DNA of 64,000 nt from Escherichia coli. Its GTDB lineage: Bacteria; Pseudomonadota; Gammaproteobacteria; Enterobacterales; Enterobacteriaceae. Position 1 is the first letter of the stretch. Each line of letters opens with the position of its first letter. Location: the NCBI RefSeq assembly GCF_024700885.2, contig NZ_CP117016.1; one strand, 5' to 3'. Under the pieces are notes generated by a model. The model ran no database searches, was not told where the DNA came from, and worked only from the letters and a program-made list of their open reading frames with translations. The translations under genes and the position numbers were made by a program. Below, piece after piece: positions 1 to 25,012 of the stretch.

Positions 1-146
1 TGGTGAAGGGATAAGACAATTTAAAAGTATCGGATGGGGTCTGTGACATGATTGTGCTCCTGTGTAAGTTCAGGGCAGTATGTCGGGAGAAGCGCGTGAC
101 GGATATTAAAGGAGATTAAGAAGAAGGGGCCGGAGCCCCTGTGATG

Positions 147-395
147 TCAGCAAGTGCGAAACCCCTTGCAGTTACGCAGGAAAGCGATGAGAAGCGTCTT
201 TCCCTCAGATTTGCCGGTGCCGGAGAACCAGTGGTCGGGAGGCTCCCATGCTTCAATCAAATCCGCCAGTTTGCGGGCCTTTGAACGTGTGCAGTCAATC
301 GGGTCATTGGTTTTACGGGTATTAAAAAGGGTTTCCACCCCCCGGAATATCAAGGAGGGTAAACCACGTACCATTTGACATGCCCAGTGCCGCAC
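147..395 (-). CDS. hypothetical phage protein in tail region
   Basis: 82-aa ORF downstream of the tail tube gene in late-operon orientation; no recognisable motif. Confidence 0.3.
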   Translation of the reverse strand: MRHWACQMVRGLPSLIFRGVETLFNTRKTNDPIDCTRSKARKLADLIEAWEPPDHWFSGTGKSEGKTLLIAFLRNCKGFRTC

Positions 396-2624: not shown

Positions 2625-3085
2625 TCGCTTTCCTCATAGTTCACTTCGGTTAACAGCGGGCCGGACGGTAAATCGCTGTCTTCGATAAAGATGCTTTCAG
2701 TCGCGAAGTCGAGGGCGTATTGCCACAGCCCCCTGACTTCACCGATAAACACCTCGCGGGTCAGCCAGATACGGCGGCGGCAGCCGGGCGGGGTGTGGCC
2801 ACCGAGAATGCGGCGGACAGCATCCAGGACATTAATCGCCCCTTTTTTACCGTTGAGCTGGCGGAAGACCACCGTGACGCAGAGCTGGATAGTCTGAGAC
2901 TGGATCACCGCACCGGTATCATCCGGCCTGTCAAAGCGCGAACCGGCATAGCTCAGCAGCAACGCGCCAACCGGATGGTTCAGGCGATATTCAGCCGGTT
3001 TCTCCGGGAAGTACTCCACCTGCAGTTGCGGCAGCTTCTCGCGTAACCGGGCCAGTACCGCATCAAGGACGGGCAGAACGTTCAT
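2621..3085 (-). CDS. phage virion protein (Mu gp37-like, head-tail joining region)
   Basis: 154 aa, translationally coupled to flanking late genes. Confidence 0.5.
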   Translation of the reverse strand: MNVLPVLDAVLARLREKLPQLQVEYFPEKPAEYRLNHPVGALLLSYAGSRFDRPDDTGAVIQSQTIQLCVTVVFRQLNGKKGAINVLDAVRRILGGHTPPGCRRRIWLTREVFIGEVRGLWQYALDFATESIFIEDSDLPSGPLLTEVNYEESE

Positions 3086-3531
3086 CAGTATTTCTCCAGT
3101 AAACCGTCACGACCGCCGAAAGTGGCCGGGCGACTGCGTACACGAAACTCGCCAGGCTCAGGCACATCTTTCTGAGTGGACGGCAGCCCCAGCGTGAGCC
3201 TGTTATCACGTAACTCCCTGAGTTGCCGCAGCGCTTCTTTGTGGTCATCCTTCACCGTATCCGGGAGGTCACCTTCCGGGCGGCGGGCGTAGAGCCGGTA
3301 ACGGACCAGCGTGATGGCAATGTCCCGCAGAACAGTCGGTATCTCTGCCAGTGGCAGGATATAGCGTCCGCGCAGATGGGCATCAATCAGCTCGTCGGCA
3401 TAGCGGATACAGCTGTCCACCACACGGGTATTCACTGTTGCAGGCGAGTCGAAGTCCATCTCTTCACTGGTGAGCTCGATAAGCGTCCGCTCCGGCACCT
3501 GCGCAAGCAAATCCTCCAGGGTGCAGTACAT
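3085..3531 (-). CDS. phage head-tail connector-like protein (Mu gp36-like); start trimmed to internal ATG at 3531
   Basis: ATG at 3531 sits 1 nt after the upstream gene's TGA; the longer track ORF would overlap the upstream gene. Confidence 0.5.
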   Translation of the reverse strand: MYCTLEDLLAQVPERTLIELTSEEMDFDSPATVNTRVVDSCIRYADELIDAHLRGRYILPLAEIPTVLRDIAITLVRYRLYARRPEGDLPDTVKDDHKEALRQLRELRDNRLTLGLPSTQKDVPEPGEFRVRSRPATFGGRDGLLEKY

Positions 3532-3532
3532 G

Positions 3533-3871
3533 TCACACCCCGCGCAGGATACGAATGACGTCGCCTTCACCCCCGGCTTCATCAAGTGCAATACCACAGG
3601 ATTTACCGTCGCCGGACTGCGGCACGGCTCTGGCCTGAGCATCTGACTGAACAGCCACACCACGGCTGACAGCGGCCCCGGCCTCGACAGCAATAATGCC
3701 CAGAACGCTCACCGGCGTGCTGTCGCCGGTAACAGCATCCACTTCGGCAACCCCGAGCGCTGCGGCACCGGCTTTACAGGGGGTATTATCTGCCCCGACA
3801 AAACGCTGCTGTGCCAGTGCTGCCCCTGCCGTTACGGTTGTGATCAGAATGACCTGCTGAGTGGTTCCCAT
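3533..3871 (-). CDS. Ala/Gly-rich hypothetical head protein
   Basis: 112-aa ORF between major head gene and gp36-like gene, in operon frame. Confidence 0.4.
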   Translation of the reverse strand: MGTTQQVILITTVTAGAALAQQRFVGADNTPCKAGAAALGVAEVDAVTGDSTPVSVLGIIAVEAGAAVSRGVAVQSDAQARAVPQSGDGKSCGIALDEAGGEGDVIRILRGV

Positions 3872-4848: not shown

Positions 4849-5964
4849 TTACAGGCAGCGTGCGACAGCAGCCTCATAGCTGATGCCTTCTTTTTTGGAC
4901 AGGGCCACTGCTTTCTGATGCAGGGCCAGACGCTCAGGATCGGCTTCCGCAAACTCTGCCACATCCACCTTCACCGTGTCGCCGACACGCTCTTTTGTGG
5001 CCTGTTCGGCGAAATTCATCACCGGCTCCCCGTCGGAGAGCAATGAACGAAAGGCGGTGGCCAGCGGTGTGCGGCTTTCCCCCTCAGCAAACTCCACCGG
5101 CTTGTCGCCACCGGCGACGGCATCCAGCAGGGCAACCACCACGGAGGAGGCGCGGGGAGCCAGACGGCCCTCTGCGACCAGTTTTTCTGCAAAGGCCACA
5201 TTGTCCTTATGCAGTTGCTCCTGTCTGACCTGTGCATCACGCGCATCGCGATCAGCAGCCTGCTGCTTCAGGCGGCGGTTCTCCTCCTGAAGGGCTTCAA
5301 TCTCTTCTTTTGTCATCGATGATTCCTCGTTACTTGCGGAAGACGGCACCTGGCCTGTCTCACTGAATTGCGCACCTGCTGCATCCTGCGACGGTGTGTC
5401 GCGGTACGCCTCTTCGCGCAGATTGTTGAGCTGCCATTCCGGCAGGACTTTTTCTGCTTCGTCCAGACTGAAGCGGGCGATCAGAAAATCGCGCAGCTTT
5501 CCCCACAGGGAGGCATTCGTGATGGCCTGCCAGTCGGCGAACTCCACCACACCTTCTTCCTGCTCACTGAAGGACACCTGTTTCAGCCCCTTGACGGAAG
5601 GTGGCTGTGCCCCGAGAAAGCCCACATGGCGCAGGTAGAGCACGCCGGGCTTCGGATTGGACGGTGAATCCGGGAGGTAGAAAGAGGCGGACACTTTTTT
5701 GAATCGTCCGTCGGTGACCATCTCAGCAAACTGCGGGTCCAGCTGGGCAGGCTCTGCCATCAGATCGACGCCGCTGAGCGACAGGGCTTTCACCCAGCCC
5801 CACGCCGGGTCTTCCGTTCTGGGATGACCAATCACGAGTGGTGCTTCATGGACGGACGGGTCATAGGCTTTCACGCAGGCGGCAAGATCGTCTGGCGTGA
5901 ACGGCAGTTTTTTGCCGTGCATATCGGTATGAGTACCGGCTTTAAAAATGTGAATGGCTGACAT
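4849..5964 (-). CDS. phage head maturation protease/scaffold (Mu I-like)
   Basis: 371 aa with acidic, Glu/Ala-rich coiled C-terminal half typical of I/Z scaffold; position upstream of major head gene. Confidence 0.7.
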   Translation of the reverse strand: MSAIHIFKAGTHTDMHGKKLPFTPDDLAACVKAYDPSVHEAPLVIGHPRTEDPAWGWVKALSLSGVDLMAEPAQLDPQFAEMVTDGRFKKVSASFYLPDSPSNPKPGVLYLRHVGFLGAQPPSVKGLKQVSFSEQEEGVVEFADWQAITNASLWGKLRDFLIARFSLDEAEKVLPEWQLNNLREEAYRDTPSQDAAGAQFSETGQVPSSASNEESSMTKEEIEALQEENRRLKQQAADRDARDAQVRQEQLHKDNVAFAEKLVAEGRLAPRASSVVVALLDAVAGGDKPVEFAEGESRTPLATAFRSLLSDGEPVMNFAEQATKERVGDTVKVDVAEFAEADPERLALHQKAVALSKKEGISYEAAVARCL

Positions 5965-6178
5965 TTTGCTGTCCCGCGTTATGTTGTCGGAGACAGTTTG
6001 TGAGAAATGCAGGCCCGGCGATTTTAATCTGCTTTAGAAAACATCAGGGGAGAAGGACAGGGAAAGCAATACGGTGAACCGGAGGCGGTTATAAAACAGA
6101 GGCTGTAAAGCCTTTATAAAGGTAATACAGCCCCTCATTCGCTGGCAATGATAAATCACCCGCCTGAAGAGAGAAAAC

Positions 6179-6637
6179 TCAGCGACGGGCCGCTGATTCA
6201 AGATGGCGGACAATGGTATCGAGGATGGGGATTACCACTTCAGGCTGTAGTTCTCCATCCCCCGTCACCGGCAGGAACGGGCGGGCCGGAAGTTCAACAG
6301 ACTCATTACGCCCCGTTTTACCCCCGAACTGGTGAATGGCACCGTAAACAACGTTGGTCCCCACAACAGCCTGCCGGTCGTCATGGTCGGTTGATACTGA
6401 CCCCATCAGACGCCCGGTATCCTGCAGTGTCTGCCCGTCACGCTCTTCCGCTGCCAGCGAGGGCATCCACCCCGGACGCCCCTCATCAAGAAAGTTAAAC
6501 TGTGTTTCCGCCAGCAGGGTTCCGGCAATTTTGCGCATCGCGGGCTCCAGGTCTGTGGCAGCAAGATCCAGCGCACGGAGGCTCCGGCGCAGGGATTTAT
6601 CGTTAATGGTGATACTGACCAGGTTATCGGAAGCCAT
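6179..6637 (-). CDS. phage virion morphogenesis protein (Mu G-like)
   Basis: 152 aa immediately downstream of the F-like gene. Confidence 0.6.
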   Translation of the reverse strand: MASDNLVSITINDKSLRRSLRALDLAATDLEPAMRKIAGTLLAETQFNFLDEGRPGWMPSLAAEERDGQTLQDTGRLMGSVSTDHDDRQAVVGTNVVYGAIHQFGGKTGRNESVELPARPFLPVTGDGELQPEVVIPILDTIVRHLESAARR

Positions 6638-6639
6638 TG

Positions 6640-7461
6640 TTATCCTCTCAGTTCCTGTTGTGCCAGTGGCTGAAGCGTACCCTGATAGCGGGCCAGGTCG
6701 GGACGGTATGCTGCCCCCGGTGCATAAGACCAGCCGACGTCGGTGATCACCTTCGTGGTGCCGGTATTAAAGGTGGCCACGTTCCGCATTTCGCCGGTTT
6801 TCTCTGAGACCAGTTTCAGTTCCTGGCCCATGGCAGAGCCGGAGCTGATAACCTTCAGGCCACGGGCACGTACATCCGCCGCACTCAGGGCAATCACACT
6901 ACAGCGGCAGCGCCAGCCGTTCGGCGGGTAAAATGCCTGCCAGAACGGGTCATCCCAGCGCAGCACCAGACCATGCAGCGCCAGATGGCTCCTGCGGGTA
7001 TGGCTGTCGTTGATGCCGGTATACATCCAGTACGGCCTGTCGTCGACGTTTTCCATCTGTTCCGCCCAACGACCGGCGCTGTAGAGTACGGACATATTGG
7101 TGCGAAAGATGGTATCGAGCCGCCACGGACTGCCCTGCTGAATGGTGACTGGCTCACCCGTTACCGGGTCAGTCGTGTCACGTGGTCCCCACCATCCCTT
7201 ACGCTTCAGCACCGGCTCCAGCTCCTGCCGGAACCAGCGATCGGTTTTTCCTTCATCGACAGCCTGCTGCAGTGCCCCGCGAATATCTTCCAGGATATCC
7301 AGGCGGGTCACTTTAGCAACGGTAAAGGCGCGGGCATGGGCCTCCTGCCACATTTCTTCCCAGTCCCAGGTAATCTGATACCCTTTGGACTTCAGGTAGT
7401 TGATTGCCCGCTTCGGGGGAAGCGTCATGCAGTACGCCAGTTCAGCCGTTGTCACGCTCAT
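6640..7461 (-). CDS. phage head morphogenesis protein (Mu F-like minor head protein)
   Basis: 273 aa; contains NGWRCRC-type motif typical of Mu F / SPP1 gp7 family; follows portal gene. Confidence 0.7.
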   Translation of the reverse strand: MSVTTAELAYCMTLPPKRAINYLKSKGYQITWDWEEMWQEAHARAFTVAKVTRLDILEDIRGALQQAVDEGKTDRWFRQELEPVLKRKGWWGPRDTTDPVTGEPVTIQQGSPWRLDTIFRTNMSVLYSAGRWAEQMENVDDRPYWMYTGINDSHTRRSHLALHGLVLRWDDPFWQAFYPPNGWRCRCSVIALSAADVRARGLKVISSGSAMGQELKLVSEKTGEMRNVATFNTGTTKVITDVGWSYAPGAAYRPDLARYQGTLQPLAQQELRG

Positions 7462-13436: not shown

Positions 13437-13566
13437 GTGTGTCTCCTTATCTGGTGGAGACAGCATCACAAATACAGGGCGCGAAGGATTTTAAAGCGCG
13501 TTAAGAGAGCCGGGGATACGGGATGTGCAGGATAAACGATGAATTATTCACAGAGGAGAATACGAT
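13437..13566. promoter_or_regulatory. divergent intergenic region: putative late (lysis) promoter and promoter of the kinase-like gene
   Basis: 130-bp non-coding gap between divergently oriented genes that both have strong RBS. Confidence 0.4.
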
Positions 13567-14295
13567 ATGACGCAGACACTGAATCCGGTCATCACTGTCA
13601 CCGTGTCCGGTCCTGTGGGCAGCGGTAAAAGTTACGTACTGGCGCGAATAGAGGAAGTGGTGAAACAGGAATTCGGAAACAGCGTCATTGTCGACGCCGC
13701 AGACGTGGACGGTGAGCGCCGTATGAGTGGGGATGATCTGAGCACATGGCAGAAACCACGGGCTGGCACAGTGATCAGGCTGGAGGAATACACGGGACAG
13801 GGCCTGTTGTCATACGGCGAGGAGCGTATCTGTCGGACGAATGAGCTGCTGGATGTTATATGCCCCACGGGCCGGCAACCCTGGATACTGCCCGATGCAC
13901 TGCATGCCACCATTGCGGCACTGATGACAGTTTACGATCAGGAGCTGCTCATGAAGGAGTTACGTAAACTCACTGGTCAGTCAACAGAATGTTGTTCGTC
14001 CCCGAAGTACGGCAAACAGGAACACATCCCGATTAACCAGCCTCCCCGGTTCTTCGACGAATACCTTCTGACACCGGAAAATAAAGCTGAGCATGAAGAG
14101 ATCAAAGCGGCGTTGTTCCGGGAAATCAGGAAGATTGCTGAAATGCAACTGGAGGGCGGGCTGGACAGAGTGATGGCGAGAGGAGAATGGGCATCGCTGT
14201 TTGAAAGAGTTTCCCCGGAATTACTTCCCCTCGCACTGGCTATCGGGATTATGCAGACAGCGGATAAACCTCACTTACGTTCATTAAACACGTAA
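13567..14295 (+). CDS. P-loop kinase-like protein (Walker A GPVGSGKS followed by hhhDAAD, as in small-molecule/nucleotide kinases)
   Basis: GAGGAGA RBS 7 nt upstream; motif VTVSGPVGSGKSYV ... SVIVDAADVD; 242 aa. Confidence 0.6.
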   Translation: MTQTLNPVITVTVSGPVGSGKSYVLARIEEVVKQEFGNSVIVDAADVDGERRMSGDDLSTWQKPRAGTVIRLEEYTGQGLLSYGEERICRTNELLDVICPTGRQPWILPDALHATIAALMTVYDQELLMKELRKLTGQSTECCSSPKYGKQEHIPINQPPRFFDEYLLTPENKAEHEEIKAALFREIRKIAEMQLEGGLDRVMARGEWASLFERVSPELLPLALAIGIMQTADKPHLRSLNT

Positions 14296-14675
14296 CGCAT
14301 AATCCGGGATACGCATTCAGCGATGACTGCATTTTCACCGGTTTTTACTGCATCCAGAAGTGACTCTTTAAATGGTACGGGCCGGGGCTGCAGAAAGGTC
14401 GGCATGGCATTGAGCAGACAGAGCGTTTTTTCCGTGAGGACGACATCAGCCGCTCCCACAGCCAGCAACTGAGAGTAACGAATATAGCTGTTATCCCGAA
14501 GCCATATCAGCGTATCAATAAAACACCGGCACTTTTTCTGGTCGTGATCAACCTGGTCCGGGATATCGAAAAAACCAGAATAAATCAAAACCTGAGGTGC
14601 CGGATGCGTGTTCAGTAATCGGCAGAATATTTTGCCGGTGAGTACATAAAAATCATCATTTAAGGAGTGCATCAT
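14271..14675 (-). CDS. hypothetical 134-aa protein, convergent with and overlapping the 3' end of the kinase-like gene by 25 bp
   Basis: Only long ORF covering 14296-14673; E. coli-like codon usage by eye; no recognisable motif. Confidence 0.45.
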   Translation of the reverse strand: MMHSLNDDFYVLTGKIFCRLLNTHPAPQVLIYSGFFDIPDQVDHDQKKCRCFIDTLIWLRDNSYIRYSQLLAVGAADVVLTEKTLCLLNAMPTFLQPRPVPFKESLLDAVKTGENAVIAECVSRIMRYVFNERK

Positions 14676-16970: not shown

Positions 16971-17891
16971 ATGGGACGTACCAAATCACCGATTAACACT
17001 GAACTGAACGCCGATGTACCGCTGTCGGATGATCTCAACGTCAGCCTGAATGCCATGACACAGCATCGCATGGAGATCATGCAGCAGTTTGGTGATGGAC
17101 TGCCTTATGAACGTGAACGCATCGTTCACGAAGCACGTTTTTATATGGCGCAGAGTGCTGAATCTATGTTGGAAGCGGGTAAGCGGCTGATCATCTTAAA
17201 AGAAAATGAACCGCATGGTGATTTCACAAATATTCTGGAAAACGACCTCGGATTAGCACCACAGGTAGCTCGTCGCATGATGCAGGCCAGCGTGAAATTT
17301 CTCGGCAATGGAGATGAACAGCCAAAACGCTCAGCGCTGAGCGTTTTGGGAAAAACCAAGTTATATGAACTGATGGTTCTGGATGACGAAGAACTCGACG
17401 CATTAGCTGATGGTGGAACCGTCGCCGGTGCAACGCTTGATGATATTGATCGCATGACCAGCCGCGAACTGAAGGCCGCCCTGCGTGAAGCGCGCGAAAC
17501 CAACGCAGCTCAGCAACAGGTGCTTGCCGGAAAGGACGAAAAAATCAACGAACTGGCCACAAAACTGGAGAAGAAATCGCGCCTGCAACCTCCGCCGCCA
17601 GACGAAGAACTGAAAAAATTGCGGGCGGAAGTGACGGCATTAGCGGTTGAGGCCGAATCGGCTATCGCCGTCCGGCTGTCCAGTGTTTTTGAGACCCTGT
17701 GTGAATACTGCACCAAAAACATGATCGATACCCCCAGAGATTTCATGGCCGGTCTGGTCTGCCAGATTGAACGCAGTGTTCATGCATTACGTGAGACGTT
17801 TGACCTTGAGGCCGCTCCATCGGGTAACGATGCCCCCGCCTGGCTGACCGAACCGGAACCTGAAATCAACCGACCGGAGGATATGCAGTAA
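16971..17891 (+). CDS. hypothetical early protein, acidic with coiled-coil region
   Basis: 306-aa ORF, RBS-coupled in early operon. Confidence 0.5.
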   Translation: MGRTKSPINTELNADVPLSDDLNVSLNAMTQHRMEIMQQFGDGLPYERERIVHEARFYMAQSAESMLEAGKRLIILKENEPHGDFTNILENDLGLAPQVARRMMQASVKFLGNGDEQPKRSALSVLGKTKLYELMVLDDEELDALADGGTVAGATLDDIDRMTSRELKAALREARETNAAQQQVLAGKDEKINELATKLEKKSRLQPPPPDEELKKLRAEVTALAVEAESAIAVRLSSVFETLCEYCTKNMIDTPRDFMAGLVCQIERSVHALRETFDLEAAPSGNDAPAWLTEPEPEINRPEDMQ

Positions 17892-18208
17892 TGAATACGA
17901 ATAACACACAAAATACCCTGATGGACAGCCCGGAGGCACTGGGGCACGCACTGTGTAATCTGCTGCCGGAGATGGTGCAGGGTTTCCGCGTGGTGACCCC
18001 TTCCGGTGAAATCTGCGTACCCGCACAGGAGACGCACCCGTTTGTACTGACGATGGAGGTGATGCTGATGCAGCAGATAAGACGTCTGCAGAATCAGTCA
18101 GCATTACGCCCGGTAGTTGCACCGCAACCGGTAAATACCGTGGTGAAAACCTGCGATGGCGAAACACTGTGCGACCTCGCCAGAAAAATTGCCGCCAGAA
18201 TCGGATAA
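17891..18208 (+). CDS. hypothetical early protein
   Basis: 105 aa, ATGA stop/start overlap with upstream gene. Confidence 0.45.
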   Translation: MNTNNTQNTLMDSPEALGHALCNLLPEMVQGFRVVTPSGEICVPAQETHPFVLTMEVMLMQQIRRLQNQSALRPVVAPQPVNTVVKTCDGETLCDLARKIAARIG

Positions 18209-18223
18209 CAGGGAAGACAAGCT

Positions 18224-19993
18224 ATGACCCCGGCACTGACTGAAAAACTGGTTGAAACAGCCCGCGCGGCACGTGACGCGGGGCATGGTAAACGCGGTGC
18301 AATATACGACGCTGCCTGTGCTGAACTTGGCATGTCCCGCGCCACTCTGCTGCGCAGGCTGAAGGAGGTATCTGTGACTGATAAACGCAAAAAACGCGCC
18401 GATGCCGGGCGCAGCGCCCTGACCCGCGACGAAGCCGCGCTGATATCTGCCACACTGCGTGAGGCCACCCGCAAGAACGGTAAGCGTCTCTATTCCATCG
18501 CAGATGCAGTGGAAACCCTGCGGGCTAACGGCTTTATCACCGCAGGCAGAACAGATGAAACCACCAGTGAGTTTTTCCCGTTGTCTGAAGATGCCATCAG
18601 CCGTGCTCTGCGTAACTATGGCCTGCACCCGGAACAACTGGATGCCCCTGCACCACATACCGAAGTGGCCAGTCTGCATCCCAATCATGTCTGGCAGATT
18701 GACGCCTCACTCTGCACGCTTTACTACCTGAGCAATGGACATAAAGGGCTGCAGGTGATGGACAGCGCGAAGTTCTACAAGAACAAGCCCGCTAACCTTG
18801 CCCGTATCGCCAGTGACCGCGTGTGGAGTTACGAGATTACCGACCATGCCAGCGGCTGGATTTACGTTGAGTATGTGACGGGCGCGGAATCAGGTGAGAA
18901 CCTGTGTTCTGTGCTTATCAACGCCATGCAGGAGCGTGGCGGCGCAGACGTGCTGCACGGCGTGCCGAAAATACTCTATCTCGACCCCGGCTCGGCAAAC
19001 ACCGCGGGTATGACGAAAAACATGTGCCGCTCACTGGGCATCGACCTGATAGCGCACAAGCCGCATAACGCCCGCGCCACCGGACAGGTGGAAAAGGCGC
19101 GTGACATTATCGAACGCAAGCTGGAGCCGGGTCTGAAGTTCCGGCCGGTTCACAGTCTGGAAGAACTCAACGCGCTGGCCGCGAAATGGCGCAGCCACTT
19201 TAACGCCACGGCTGTTCACAGCCGCCACGGTAAAACCCGCACGGATATCTGGCTGAAGATTACTGCTGAGCAGCTGAAAAAAGCGCCTTCCGTTGAGGTA
19301 TGTCGTGAACTGGCTGTGGCGGCACCAGAACTCCGCAAAGTCACGCCAAAACTTCGTGTCTCGTTCCGGGGCACTGAATTTGACGTATCAACGGTACCGG
19401 GCGTACTGGTTGGTGAAAAACTGATGATTACCCGTAACCCATGGCGCAGCGATGTGGCACAGGTGGTTCTGACCGGTGAGGACGGCCACGAGACGTTCTT
19501 CCTGGTCGAAGAGGTCAGAAAGAACGAGTTTGGCTTTGCTGAAGGCGCGGCGGTATTTGGCGAAAGTTACAAAGCCCTGCCGGAAACCCCGGCACAGATG
19601 GCGGCAAAAGAAACCGAAGCGCTGGTTACCGGTACAGACAACGCCGCAGATGCAGCCGCCGCACGCAAGGCGAAGGCGCTGCCGTTCGGCGGGCGGCTTG
19701 ACCCGTATAAACATATCGACGACACCACACTTCCGGCCTATATGCCGAAGCGTGGTCAGGCCTCTGACGTACGCGGGCCGCGCACTGAACAACGTCCCAT
19801 GACTCATGTGGAGGCCGCGAAAGCCCTGCGCGATAAGTTCAGCGCCGACGGCCTTACCTGGACGCCGGAACATTACCGCCAGTTAACGGCACAGTACCCG
19901 GACGGCGTACCGGAAGCCGCACTGGATGAAGTCATGGCCACGCTGACCACACCGGCCCGCAGCAGTGTTATCAGCATTGTTAACGGCAACTGA
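18224..19993 (+). CDS. DDE transposase (Mu A analogue, integrase-core type)
   Basis: 589 aa; N-terminal HTH, WQIDAS and LYLDPGSANT DDE-type motifs; followed by ATPase partner. Confidence 0.8.
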   Translation: MTPALTEKLVETARAARDAGHGKRGAIYDAACAELGMSRATLLRRLKEVSVTDKRKKRADAGRSALTRDEAALISATLREATRKNGKRLYSIADAVETLRANGFITAGRTDETTSEFFPLSEDAISRALRNYGLHPEQLDAPAPHTEVASLHPNHVWQIDASLCTLYYLSNGHKGLQVMDSAKFYKNKPANLARIASDRVWSYEITDHASGWIYVEYVTGAESGENLCSVLINAMQERGGADVLHGVPKILYLDPGSANTAGMTKNMCRSLGIDLIAHKPHNARATGQVEKARDIIERKLEPGLKFRPVHSLEELNALAAKWRSHFNATAVHSRHGKTRTDIWLKITAEQLKKAPSVEVCRELAVAAPELRKVTPKLRVSFRGTEFDVSTVPGVLVGEKLMITRNPWRSDVAQVVLTGEDGHETFFLVEEVRKNEFGFAEGAAVFGESYKALPETPAQMAAKETEALVTGTDNAADAAAARKAKALPFGGRLDPYKHIDDTTLPAYMPKRGQASDVRGPRTEQRPMTHVEAAKALRDKFSADGLTWTPEHYRQLTAQYPDGVPEAALDEVMATLTTPARSSVISIVNGN

Positions 19994-24201: not shown

Positions 24202-24651
24202 ATGCAGAAAAAACGCCTGATACAGCTTATCCATATTGCCCGTAATGAACTGGGTATGGATGAAGACACCTACCGCCAGATGTTACAGGGGCTGACCGGT
24301 AAAGCCTCAACCAAAGGAATGGATACCACACAACTAAACTGCGTGCTGGAATCCATGAAAAAGAAAGGCTTTCGCGTTAAACCAGCCAGAAAAGCCAGCT
24401 CCGGTTTACCGCTGGATAACCATCCGCAGTCCAGGAAAATTCGTGCGCTATGGCTTGAAATGGCTGCTGCCGGCATTGTTCGTGACCGTTCAGAAAATGC
24501 ATTAGCGAGGTGGATCAAGCGGGAAACGGGCATCAGCGCCCTGCGCTGGCTCAGTACTGAACAGGCAAGCAGTGTTATTGAGAAACTGAAGAAGTGGCAG
24601 CGCAGAGCTGCGGGAGTCAAACATGAGCGACCTGAATCAGTTTCGAAGTAA
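24202..24651 (+). CDS. GemA-like (Mu gp16-like) regulatory protein
   Basis: 149 aa immediately upstream of mor, as in Mu. Confidence 0.5.
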   Translation: MQKKRLIQLIHIARNELGMDEDTYRQMLQGLTGKASTKGMDTTQLNCVLESMKKKGFRVKPARKASSGLPLDNHPQSRKIRALWLEMAAAGIVRDRSENALARWIKRETGISALRWLSTEQASSVIEKLKKWQRRAAGVKHERPESVSK

Positions 24652-25012
24652 GGGGCCGGAACTCCTGGTGGAACTGGCACAGCATACCTCTGAGACCGTT
24701 CGCGAGATTATTGATATTGAGCCCGAAGTTGCCGACCAGATTGGTCAGGCCGTCGCGAACCGAATGATGCAGGTCTGGGGCGGGCAAAACGTTTATTTCC
24801 CGATGGGCATGGTATGGAAGGTCAGTCAGCGCGACCGGGAAATCTTCAGGGAGTTTAACGGACGCAACCACCACGAACTGGCCCGCAAATTTGGTGTTTC
24901 GCTTCAGTGGGTCTACAGCGTGGTTAAGCGGGTAAGAAAAGAAGAACTGGATCGGATGCAGGGCAAGCTATTTGCTGATGAACCCGATGCAGATACGGAG
25001 AAAAAAGAGTAA
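24623..25012 (+). CDS. mor: Mor/C-family transcriptional activator
   Basis: 129 aa with C-terminal HTH HHELARKFGVSLQWVYSVVKRV. Confidence 0.7.
   Translation: MSDLNQFRSKGPELLVELAQHTSETVREIIDIEPEVADQIGQAVANRMMQVWGGQNVYFPMGMVWKVSQRDREIFREFNGRNHHELARKFGVSLQWVYSVVKRVRKEELDRMQGKLFADEPDADTEKKE

Follow-up and report, generated by a model that had tools for sequence, protein, structure and literature searches.

We analysed a 64,000-nucleotide stretch of the Escherichia coli contig NZ_CP117016.1 (RefSeq assembly GCF_024700885.2; hereafter the window), the first 25 kb of which is occupied by a BcepMu-like (Bcepmuvirus) transposable prophage whose late genes lie on the minus strand, and focused on the gap between two of those genes, the G-like virion morphogenesis gene and the I-like head protease/scaffold gene. 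With moderate confidence, we read this G-I gap as the BcepMu-family counterpart of the central G-I control region of phage Mu, a region of three stacked functions that include a probable DNA gyrase or architectural site. All element types in the gap are already known from Mu and the layout is a further example of a known one, such that the sharply conserved core of the gap and the breadth of hosts in which that core is found are the only points that might be new to a specialist.

A preliminary description of the window, made from its letters, had noted a 214-bp gap among otherwise tightly packed late genes, and both observations held up. The interval between the two open reading frames (ORFs) is exactly 5965-6178, and the other late genes overlap their neighbours or stand 2-14 nt from them, which makes this gap the sole one of appreciable size within the head module. 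Escherichia phage PhiKM has the region at the same 214-bp length and with 99.3% identity; the prophage carrying it is present in 638 of 5426 complete E. coli genomes (12%), and a comparable gap of ~200-215 bp also occurs in phage KP12 and in the Burkholderia phages BcepMu and phiE255. Across 10 distinct close E. coli variants we counted 14 variable gap positions, with none in 6137-6088 and one in the stretch from the promoter (see below) to the ATG of the I-like gene. Alignment with KP12, phiE255 and BcepMu revealed two islands kept between enteric and Burkholderia phages, namely TTTATAAAGGCTTTA at 6120-6106, which is the heart of a palindrome, and TAAAGCnGATTAAAA at 6036-6022.

That palindrome, which the preliminary description had reported as nested, is real, with GGCTGTA at 6101-6107, CCTTTATAAAGG at 6111-6122 and TACAGCC at 6126-6132 on the plus strand, and a repeat finder returned it as two overlapping 22-nt arms (6098-6119 and 6114-6135) that are 82% complementary. 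Its fold is more than chance, as the sense RNA of 6135-6098 reaches -19.9 kcal/mol compared to -9.3 +/- 2.6 kcal/mol for dinucleotide shuffles (z -4.15; 0 of 200 shuffles as good).

Conservation was evaluated in relatives obtained by scanning one genome per species with an alignment of the I protein, which yielded 80 loci, 62 of them with an upstream G homologue. The octamer TTTATAAA is located 48-92 nt past the G stop in 41 of these 62, and in a 42nd locus (L214) the distance is 301 nt. Among the hosts are Pantoea, Mixta, Photorhabdus, Xenorhabdus, Pectobacterium, Dickeya, Serratia, many Pseudomonas, Burkholderia, Chromobacterium, Acidovorax, an Alcaligenaceae strain, Deefgea and Glaesserella; they span three proteobacterial groups, and the octamer is retained even where G identity is down to 28-40%. 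The core common to the relatives is approximately (G)TAAAG-CTTTATAAAG-GCTTTAC, which is to say alternating TAAAG and CTTTA units, and the TTTATAAA core is present in one copy in the E. coli prophage and in one copy in BcepMu. Candidatus Pantoea persica (L246) holds two overlapping copies of the core (CCCTTTATAAAGCTTTATAAACC), ~63-85 nt past its G stop.

The outer arms of the palindrome, in turn, are not common to the relatives. A 73%-identity clade lacks the 5' arm and has another GC hairpin upstream, Pseudomonas versions possess the left arm only, and in Photorhabdus no hairpin spans the core. On these comparisons we take the palindrome of the preliminary description to be a lineage-specific extension of an invariant TTTATAAA core, and we take the conserved feature to be sequence rather than RNA structure, in an element separable from the promoter. 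The failure of relatives to keep the RNA hairpin speaks against a conserved function at the RNA level.

The core lies near the middle of the genomes for which its position could be calculated. In E. coli EcPF7 (NZ_CP054232.1), the prophage sits between otsB (end 574,840) and araH (start 612,133), an interval of ~37.3 kb, which puts the palindrome centre (~592,994) at a relative position of 0.49, with the ends uncertain by about +/-150 bp. The BcepMu core is at 18,746 of 36,748, or 0.51. The Mu record places its 'gyrase cut site' at 17879/17880, in the G-I gap, 20 nt past the G stop, which corresponds to a genome fraction of 0.487. The gyrase sites of both Mu and FluMu have been placed between G and I (PMC2628397), and the strong gyrase site of Mu is required, at a central position, both for fast replicative transposition and for keeping the prophage as a looped domain, its essential part being a right arm with phased bending signals (PMC10052514, PMC3820752, PMC6379681).

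Helical phasing is also found around the core described here. When 24 non-redundant gaps (<60% anchored identity) were anchored on the central TTTA/TAAA, the ensemble A/T profile revealed a single spectral peak at 10-10.5 bp, with a power of 0.44 compared to at most 0.12 at other periods between 5 and 20 bp. The peak is seen in Enterobacterales, Pseudomonas and Betaproteobacteria separately and in the same phase, with flank identity between groups at 27-28%, which is random, and phase coherence extends over about -75 to +45, then resumes over +70 to +100, relative to the core. Taking the loci one at a time, in 20 of 62 the stretch just after G shows stronger 10-11 bp periodicity than the rest of its ~4-kb locus, and in 45% it ranks at the 5th percentile or below, although the null for this ranking is mostly coding DNA, which counts against our reading. 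As single sequences, the window gap reaches z 3.8 (top 0.6% of the 100-bp windows of the prophage) and the Mu strong gyrase site z 3.3 (top 1%). Among FluMu-like and Mu-like relatives without TTTATAAA (L260, L253, L262, L202), the same place is taken by phased TTTAAAC(G/C)G-type units at 10-11 bp spacing, with four copies in Avibacterium (L260), and Mu 17890-17935 has TTTTAAAACGCG, TTTTTAAACCGG and TATTTAACGG. The arrays of these relatives resemble tracts in the right arm of the Mu gyrase site.

At the level of RNA, the hairpin at 6135-6098 is followed on the sense strand by UCUGUUUUAU, giving the stem-loop plus U-run of an intrinsic terminator, and in the E. coli lineage this probably terminates part of the upstream lysis/head transcript. 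BcepMu similarly has a 13-bp stem followed by UUUGGUU, and the Mu gap a hairpin followed by UUUUAUCUU; the Mu lys transcript is itself said to end between G and I, as reportedly found by Zha, Zhao and Howe in 1994. These hairpins with their U-runs, and the stability of the one in the window, would suit a palindrome that is a Rho-independent terminator of the upstream lysis/head late transcript and nothing more, which we nonetheless consider improbable. What is conserved is the loop/core sequence and not the stem, a different GC hairpin stands upstream in the clade without the 5' arm, Photorhabdus and several Pseudomonas versions lack a core-spanning hairpin, U-runs are not conserved, and a plain terminator leaves phased flanks over >100 bp unexplained. 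By a crude criterion, only 2 of the 24 representatives combine a core-spanning hairpin with a T-rich tail, and in several the core forms no hairpin. Given this lack of structural conservation, termination would be a secondary, lineage-level use of the sequence. Another terminator-like hairpin, over the G stop (6196-6179, minus strand; TCAGCGGCCCGTCGCTGA then GTTTTCTCTC), is probably chance, with a stem of 5-7 bp in coding sequence that is not kept in Photorhabdus.

The pattern of conservation bears as well on the idea that the gap encodes a small protein (a 34-codon ORF from the ATG at 6137, or the 41-aa coding sequence (CDS) of KP12) or is an RNase processing site, the latter in line with the transcript processing that the preliminary description had offered as an option; we give this idea almost no weight. 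A 41-aa hypothetical CDS is indeed annotated in the KP12 gap, and by inspection an ATG-initiated frame of 34 codons runs through the window palindrome, but the KP12 clade has CTG in place of that ATG, a 1-nt deletion (AAAGG-TTTAC) shifts the frame in the 73%-identity clade, and the BcepMu frame hits a stop codon just upstream of the core. We rejected the small ORF on this loss of the start codon and these frame breaks, and the conservation, moreover, has the form of a contiguous nucleotide block that is not codon-like. For a processing site, the unconserved hairpin again speaks against it, as does the lack of an Rfam family match: a scan of 5500-6700 at a permissive threshold returned only three chance-level eukaryotic/archaeal matches.

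We next turn to the late promoter. In Mu, Mor/C sites are 16-bp imperfect dyads centred at -43.5 in promoters with a -10 and without a -35, and PI is one of four late promoters (PMC4390567, PMC2582627). By analogy, the preliminary description had suggested that the gap with its palindrome might be a Mor/C-dependent promoter upstream of I. A promoter of this type upstream of I is borne out by the anatomy of the gap, which has a 16-bp element, a -10 hexamer and no -35 hexamer (AATCGC, 6023-6018, is at that position), by the recurrence of this anatomy and by the presence of an encoded Mor; its placement at the palindrome is not. The pattern of TTAAAATC, 19 nt and a -10 occurs with 0 mismatches at only two places in the 64 kb, both on the minus strand, one in the G-I gap and one at the holin gene, where the copy reads TTAA-N6-TTAA and has the same geometry as the element in the gap. 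Late promoters at the starts of I, holin and the tail operon share the form TTAAnATC-N19-(-10), and a hexamer [C/G]A..[A/C]T whose A2 and T6 are invariant stands at the same column and fixed spacing in 22 diverged relatives. BcepMu carries exactly two copies of the 15-mer without a mismatch, one 55 bp ahead of holin and one upstream of gp32 (I), with weaker inverted copies in the tube/gp41 and gp48/gp49 gaps, such that the BcepMu sites (11486, 18813, 24530, 30772) are all in late intergenic gaps. A sequence of the Mu Pm region just downstream of mor, AGTAAAGCCGGTTAAT, matches the BcepMu element at 13 of 16 positions and the window element at 11 of 16, with the Mu Mor half-sites here assigned from the sequence and the published description rather than from the printed figure. 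The Mor-family protein of the prophage itself shows 30% identity to Mu Mor by BLASTP (E 2e-15), and its identity to Mu C is 37% (E 5e-15). These observations support a Mor-type late promoter for the I-like gene in the gap, with its Mor dependence and its start predicted from the anatomy.

That the palindrome would itself be this Mor/C-dependent promoter, or an auxiliary Mor-binding site, is very unlikely, and we rejected it on matrix scores. Its core of TAAAG/CTTTA units does look like the Mor-type element (TAAAG-N5-TAAAAG), and its promoter-matrix score exceeds the 99.9th percentile of background in most relatives. On a leave-one-out promoter-element matrix, however, the palindrome scores -5 to +13 bits versus 17-35 bits for true sites, a shortfall of ~20 bits, it is followed by no -10 at a conserved distance, and a complete promoter is already present 65-100 bp downstream, from which inserted genes part the core in six relatives. 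We also considered that the core might stay fixed where the Mor site varies, an argument that proved weak: the promoter element of Pectobacterium departs only moderately from the shared motif.

The six relatives with genes inserted between core and promoter (L174, reverse-strand 3014-3637; L204, L214, L220, L221, L228) all keep the core beside G, and their gaps measure 550-1366 bp. One insert is an HNH endonuclease (PF01844, E 1e-7) and the rest are proteins of 96-376 aa with no Pfam match. The window's own G-I gap has no inserted gene.

Between the promoter and the I-like gene, an inverted repeat pairs CTGTCTCC (5996-5989) with GGGACAG (5975-5969), the 5' arm preceding the predicted +1 and the 3' arm covering the ribosome-binding region and ending 4 nt before the ATG at 5964. 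The same geometry, with lineage-specific stems, was found in 14 of 15 sequences tested (z -1.4 to -5.6, 13 of them at -2.5 or below), relative to a start that is only predicted. Stems differ between lineages yet compensate mutually, while formal covariation on a MAFFT alignment is weak. One of these sequences is the holin promoter of the window, with TGTCTCC at 13462-13456 and GGAGACA at 13446-13440. Relatives in which the Mor-type promoter overlaps such a repeat are L188, L195, L196, L200, L203, L215, L219, L228, L242 and L245; in this geometry the 5' arm starts inside or just past the -10, and between the end of the 3' arm and the AUG there are 0-4 nt. Because the 5' arm precedes the +1, the repeat would form in read-through RNA only, and it could hide the ribosome-binding site of I in that RNA only.

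In six betaproteobacterial relatives (L201, L204, L212, L214, L221, L257; ~1480-1510 in each), the I ATG stands 6-7 nt past the -10, as for example in GATCATGGCGGCATG, and this spacing suggests a leaderless I mRNA from the late promoter. Both designs, repeat and leaderless, would presumably restrict I translation to promoter-initiated RNA.

Returning to the central element, the chances that the palindrome element is the counterpart of the central gyrase site of Mu, and bound by gyrase, seem to us roughly even. More tentatively, the TTTATAAA element may be a sequence-defined central site of BcepMu-like phages, either as a second type of strong gyrase site, with a recognisable core and no sequence relationship to that of Mu, or as the target of an unknown architectural factor, and it is with the same reserve that we would extend such a shared central site over Enterobacterales, Pseudomonas, Pasteurellaceae and Betaproteobacteria.

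A number of results weigh against the reading of the gap as a Mu-like central region with a gyrase site. Local alignment of the Mu G-I gap with the 24 representative gaps gave nothing significant (z at most 2.5, in inconsistent registers), and the gyrase core preference (-4G/+8C, -2A/+6T, +1G/+4C) is matched at only 2 to 4 of 6 positions, with the Mu cut scoring no better. A published 133-bp gyrase consensus, applied to Mu, BcepMu and the window in exact and strong/weak forms, did not single out the gap, which is uninformative since the Mu site itself ranks ~210th; equally uninformative is the gyrase core GNAN/GNNC/NTNC, matched at 4 of 6 at several places in the gap, as ~4% of all positions reach that level and the Mu cut scores lower. 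When the ensemble A/T profile was correlated with the gyrase consensus pattern over a series of offsets, neither the core nor the conserved block upstream of it stood out as a peak, and the best offset (-99) was not significant. The A/T profile of the flanks has no two-fold symmetry about the core (r 0.12), leaving the core unsupported as a dyad centre, BcepMu is not individually periodic (62nd percentile), and helical phasing is not specific to gyrase. A strictly invariant core of 8 bp is seen more typically with a sequence-specific protein than with gyrase, whose preference is degenerate. As to the other parts of the gap, the hairpin with its U-run is not conserved (the U-run of the KP12 clade is poor), and the start is predicted, such that a start upstream of 5996 would make the read-through-only logic of the repeat fail. 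In the upstream block, GCGGGTGATTT-AT resembles, by eye, the reverse complement of Mu 17875-17889, and a likeness of GGCGGGTGATTTAT (6163-6150) to the Mu cut-site core (nuB variant) was within chance (Smith-Waterman versus shuffles, z 0.8 to 2.5, inconsistent registers) and is of positional interest only.

The main rival to a gyrase site is a different architectural protein, whether phage-encoded or a host nucleoid protein, that would bind the palindrome and its phased flanks in a sequence-specific manner and organise the prophage or tune late transcription without gyrase. We regard this as possible, if rather doubtful. An 8-bp palindromic core that stays invariant, together with its G/C flanks (GC-TTTATAAA-GC), in very diverged relatives is more typical of a dimeric DNA-binding protein than of gyrase, the element has no similarity to the Mu gyrase site, BcepMu encodes an HU-like protein, and 10-bp phasing suits other wrapping or bending proteins too. 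No candidate protein was identified, however, the E. coli prophage has no annotated HU gene, and by inspection the core does not appear to fit the IHF, Fis, CRP or DnaA consensus sequences. The core is furthermore single-copy per genome, at the midpoint and in a position homologous to the Mu gyrase site.

Taking the Mu-like central region as our preferred reading, we propose the following model. The segment from the G stop to ~6090 would act as a central DNA element, with phased A/T around TTTATAAA, most likely as a gyrase-wrapping site equivalent to that of Mu, and would sit at the apex of a supercoiled loop, helping to join the two prophage ends for replicative transposition. Transcribed in this E. 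coli lineage, the same sequence would form a hairpin with a U-run that probably ends part of the upstream lysis/head transcript. A Mor dimer on 6038-6023 (~-42.5) would then recruit sigma-70 RNA polymerase to the -10 at 6000-5995, and transcription of I and the downstream head genes would begin at ~5988. The inverted repeat (5996-5989 / 5975-5969) would form only in RNA reading through from upstream, with the I ribosome-binding site hidden there and open in promoter-initiated RNA. In this model the sequence anatomy, conservation, spacing, periodicity and genome position are observed; gyrase binding, termination, Mor dependence, the transcription start and the effect on translation are inferred.

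Such a model matters for several reasons. What makes the strong gyrase site of Mu special is still debated, and outside close Mu relatives such sites have so far not been recognisable from sequence; the authors of the KS10 paper sought a gyrase site in KS10 and found none (PMC2628397). If the TTTATAAA element is a functional equivalent, its ~40 diverged natural variants would be available for dissecting what the site requires, and the element would be a simple marker for the centre of BcepMu-like prophages. If a central site is indeed shared, that of transposable phages would be predictable from sequence, and the order of the G-I gap would be a fixed site, an accessory-gene insertion slot and a late promoter. 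The promoter result offers a usable consensus for Mor-dependent late promoters across the phage family and a predicted start for the head operon, and the promoter-in-hairpin arrangement suggests a way of tying translation of holin and head protease to authentic late promoters. Should gyrase not bind here, the region would still be an ordinary terminator-plus-promoter junction and a routine finding.

Features of the gap and of the related promoters are collected in Table 1. The G-like gene ends with a TGA at 6181-6179, and the I-like gene is equivalent to BcepMu gp32, annotated as 'Mu I equivalent'. Ahead of the two genes lie those for a terminase, a Mu-type portal and a Mu F-like protein, and the prophage genes also include a DDE transposase, an ExeA-family protein in the MuB position, Gam, GemA and Mor.

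Table 1. Coordinates of the features discussed (positions in the window; a dot marks features given without strand).
Feature	Position	Strand	Details
Late promoter, tail-chaperone genes (sister site)	77..109	-	TTAATATC, 1 mismatch, 19 nt, CATACT
I-like head protease/scaffold gene	4849..5964	-	371-aa ORF; PHROG 976 head maturation protease, E 7e-163; downstream border of gap
Inverted repeat over predicted ribosome-binding region of I	5969..5996	-	CTGTCTCC + GGGACAG; -10.7 kcal/mol, z -3.3
Late-promoter -10 hexamer	5995..6000	-	CAAACT; fixed 19 nt from TTAAAATC; predicted start ~5988/5987
Helically phased A/T-rich stretch	6016..6191 (approximate limits)	.	period 10-10.5 bp around core; proposed central architectural/gyrase-wrapping region
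16-bp Mor-type activator element	6023..6038	-	TCTAAAGCAGATTAAA; conserved island; centre ~-42.5 from predicted start, good to ~1 bp
U-rich run after hairpin	6090..6100	-	UCUGUUUUAUA; terminator-like scan match: stem 6113-6100 + tail CTGTTTTATA
Nested palindrome	6098..6135	-	sense RNA AGGGGCUGUA-UUA-CCUUUAUAAAGG-CUU-UACAGCCUCU
Family-wide conserved core	6106..6122	.	CCTTTATAAAGGCTTTA; TTTA/TAAA centre between 6117 and 6116; identical in BcepMu and phiE255
Upstream conserved block	6143..6168	-	TTCAGGCGGGTGATTTATCATTGCC; 11-36 nt past G stop; conserved among enteric relatives
G-like virion morphogenesis gene	6179..6637	-	152-aa ORF; Pfam PF05069 Phage_tail_S, E 4.9e-23; 'Mup31, G' in phage PhiKM; upstream border of gap
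Late promoter, holin (sister site)	13462..13494	-	TTAAAATC, 19 nt, GATGCT (13467-13462), 0 mismatches; downstream gene holin
Mor-family transcription activator	24623..25012	+	Pfam PF08765, E 1.3e-43; presumed trans-acting factor for late promoters

The surroundings of the sister promoters yielded some further observations. The gap between the tube and tail-chaperone genes (48-150, minus strand) has an intrinsic terminator, GGGGCTCCGGCCCC then TTCTTCTT (-12.8 kcal/mol, hairpin ~140-125), directly after which comes the tail promoter, its activator element partly overlapping the T-run of the terminator, and the same arrangement is found at BcepMu 24510-24600. Directly upstream of the holin promoter, on the opposite strand, lies a gene for a 242-aa protein of unknown function (13567-14295, plus strand; PHROG 3787, no Pfam match) that overlaps the end of a 134-aa gene, likewise of unknown function (14271-14675, minus strand), and BcepMu annotation offers no function for either. 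Beyond the window, EcPF7 575,010-577,248 (L181 7011-9249) has a recombinase-family gene beside oppositely oriented tail-fibre/assembly genes at the tail-fibre end of the prophage, which looks like an invertible host-range switch of the Mu Gin/G-segment type.

Among known systems, the repeat at the I start finds its closest parallel in phage T4, where the genes e (lysozyme), soc and I-TevI have a late promoter inside a hairpin that sequesters the ribosome-binding site, such that only read-through RNA folds and is silenced. As in those genes, the 5' arm lies upstream of the late start, here a predicted one, and the 3' arm over the ribosome-binding site, whereas phage and promoter type are unrelated, the upstream and internal promoters here are both presumably late, and the function we ascribe to the repeat is predicted from sequence.

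Accessory genes past an element that follows G are also known from the Mu-like siphophages of Pseudomonas (Casadabanvirus), whose anti-CRISPR locus occupies the same G-I slot, and from phage Ab30. For Ab30, a gyrase site directly after the G homologue has been proposed (PMC5977238). The sequence after its G is a different inverted repeat. The proposed 37-bp transposition-free segment (18736-18772; L263, LN610590, 2239-2350) is directly past the stop of the G homologue (PF05069, E 4e-26), and the inverted repeat, GGCACATTGTGCC...GGCACAATGTGCC, starts ~20 nt further on and covers no more than the final ~13 bp of that segment. This repeat may be an operator instead of a gyrase site.

Compared with Pm and the late promoters of Mu, the prophage shares a -10 without a -35, a 16-bp element over the -35 position, a Mor-family gene and a motif at the head of each late operon; it differs in its -10 consensus, [C/G]A..[A/C]T, and in apparently using a single activator for all late promoters, BcepMu-type phages having one Mor/C homologue versus two in Mu. 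For the G-I region as a whole, there is no significant sequence similarity to the Mu site, the marker is an invariant TTTATAAA palindrome versus TTTTTTAAAA, TTTTTAAA and TATTTAA tracts in Mu, and the BcepMu transposase is annotated as Tn552/IS1604-type. Nevertheless, the gap occupies the same gene context, between G and I homologues, and nearly the same genome position (0.49 versus 0.487), its phased A/T tracts are comparable to those of the Mu right arm on the same periodicity measure, and its elements follow the Mu order, with a site past the G stop, a hairpin with a U-run and an activator-dependent promoter without a -35.

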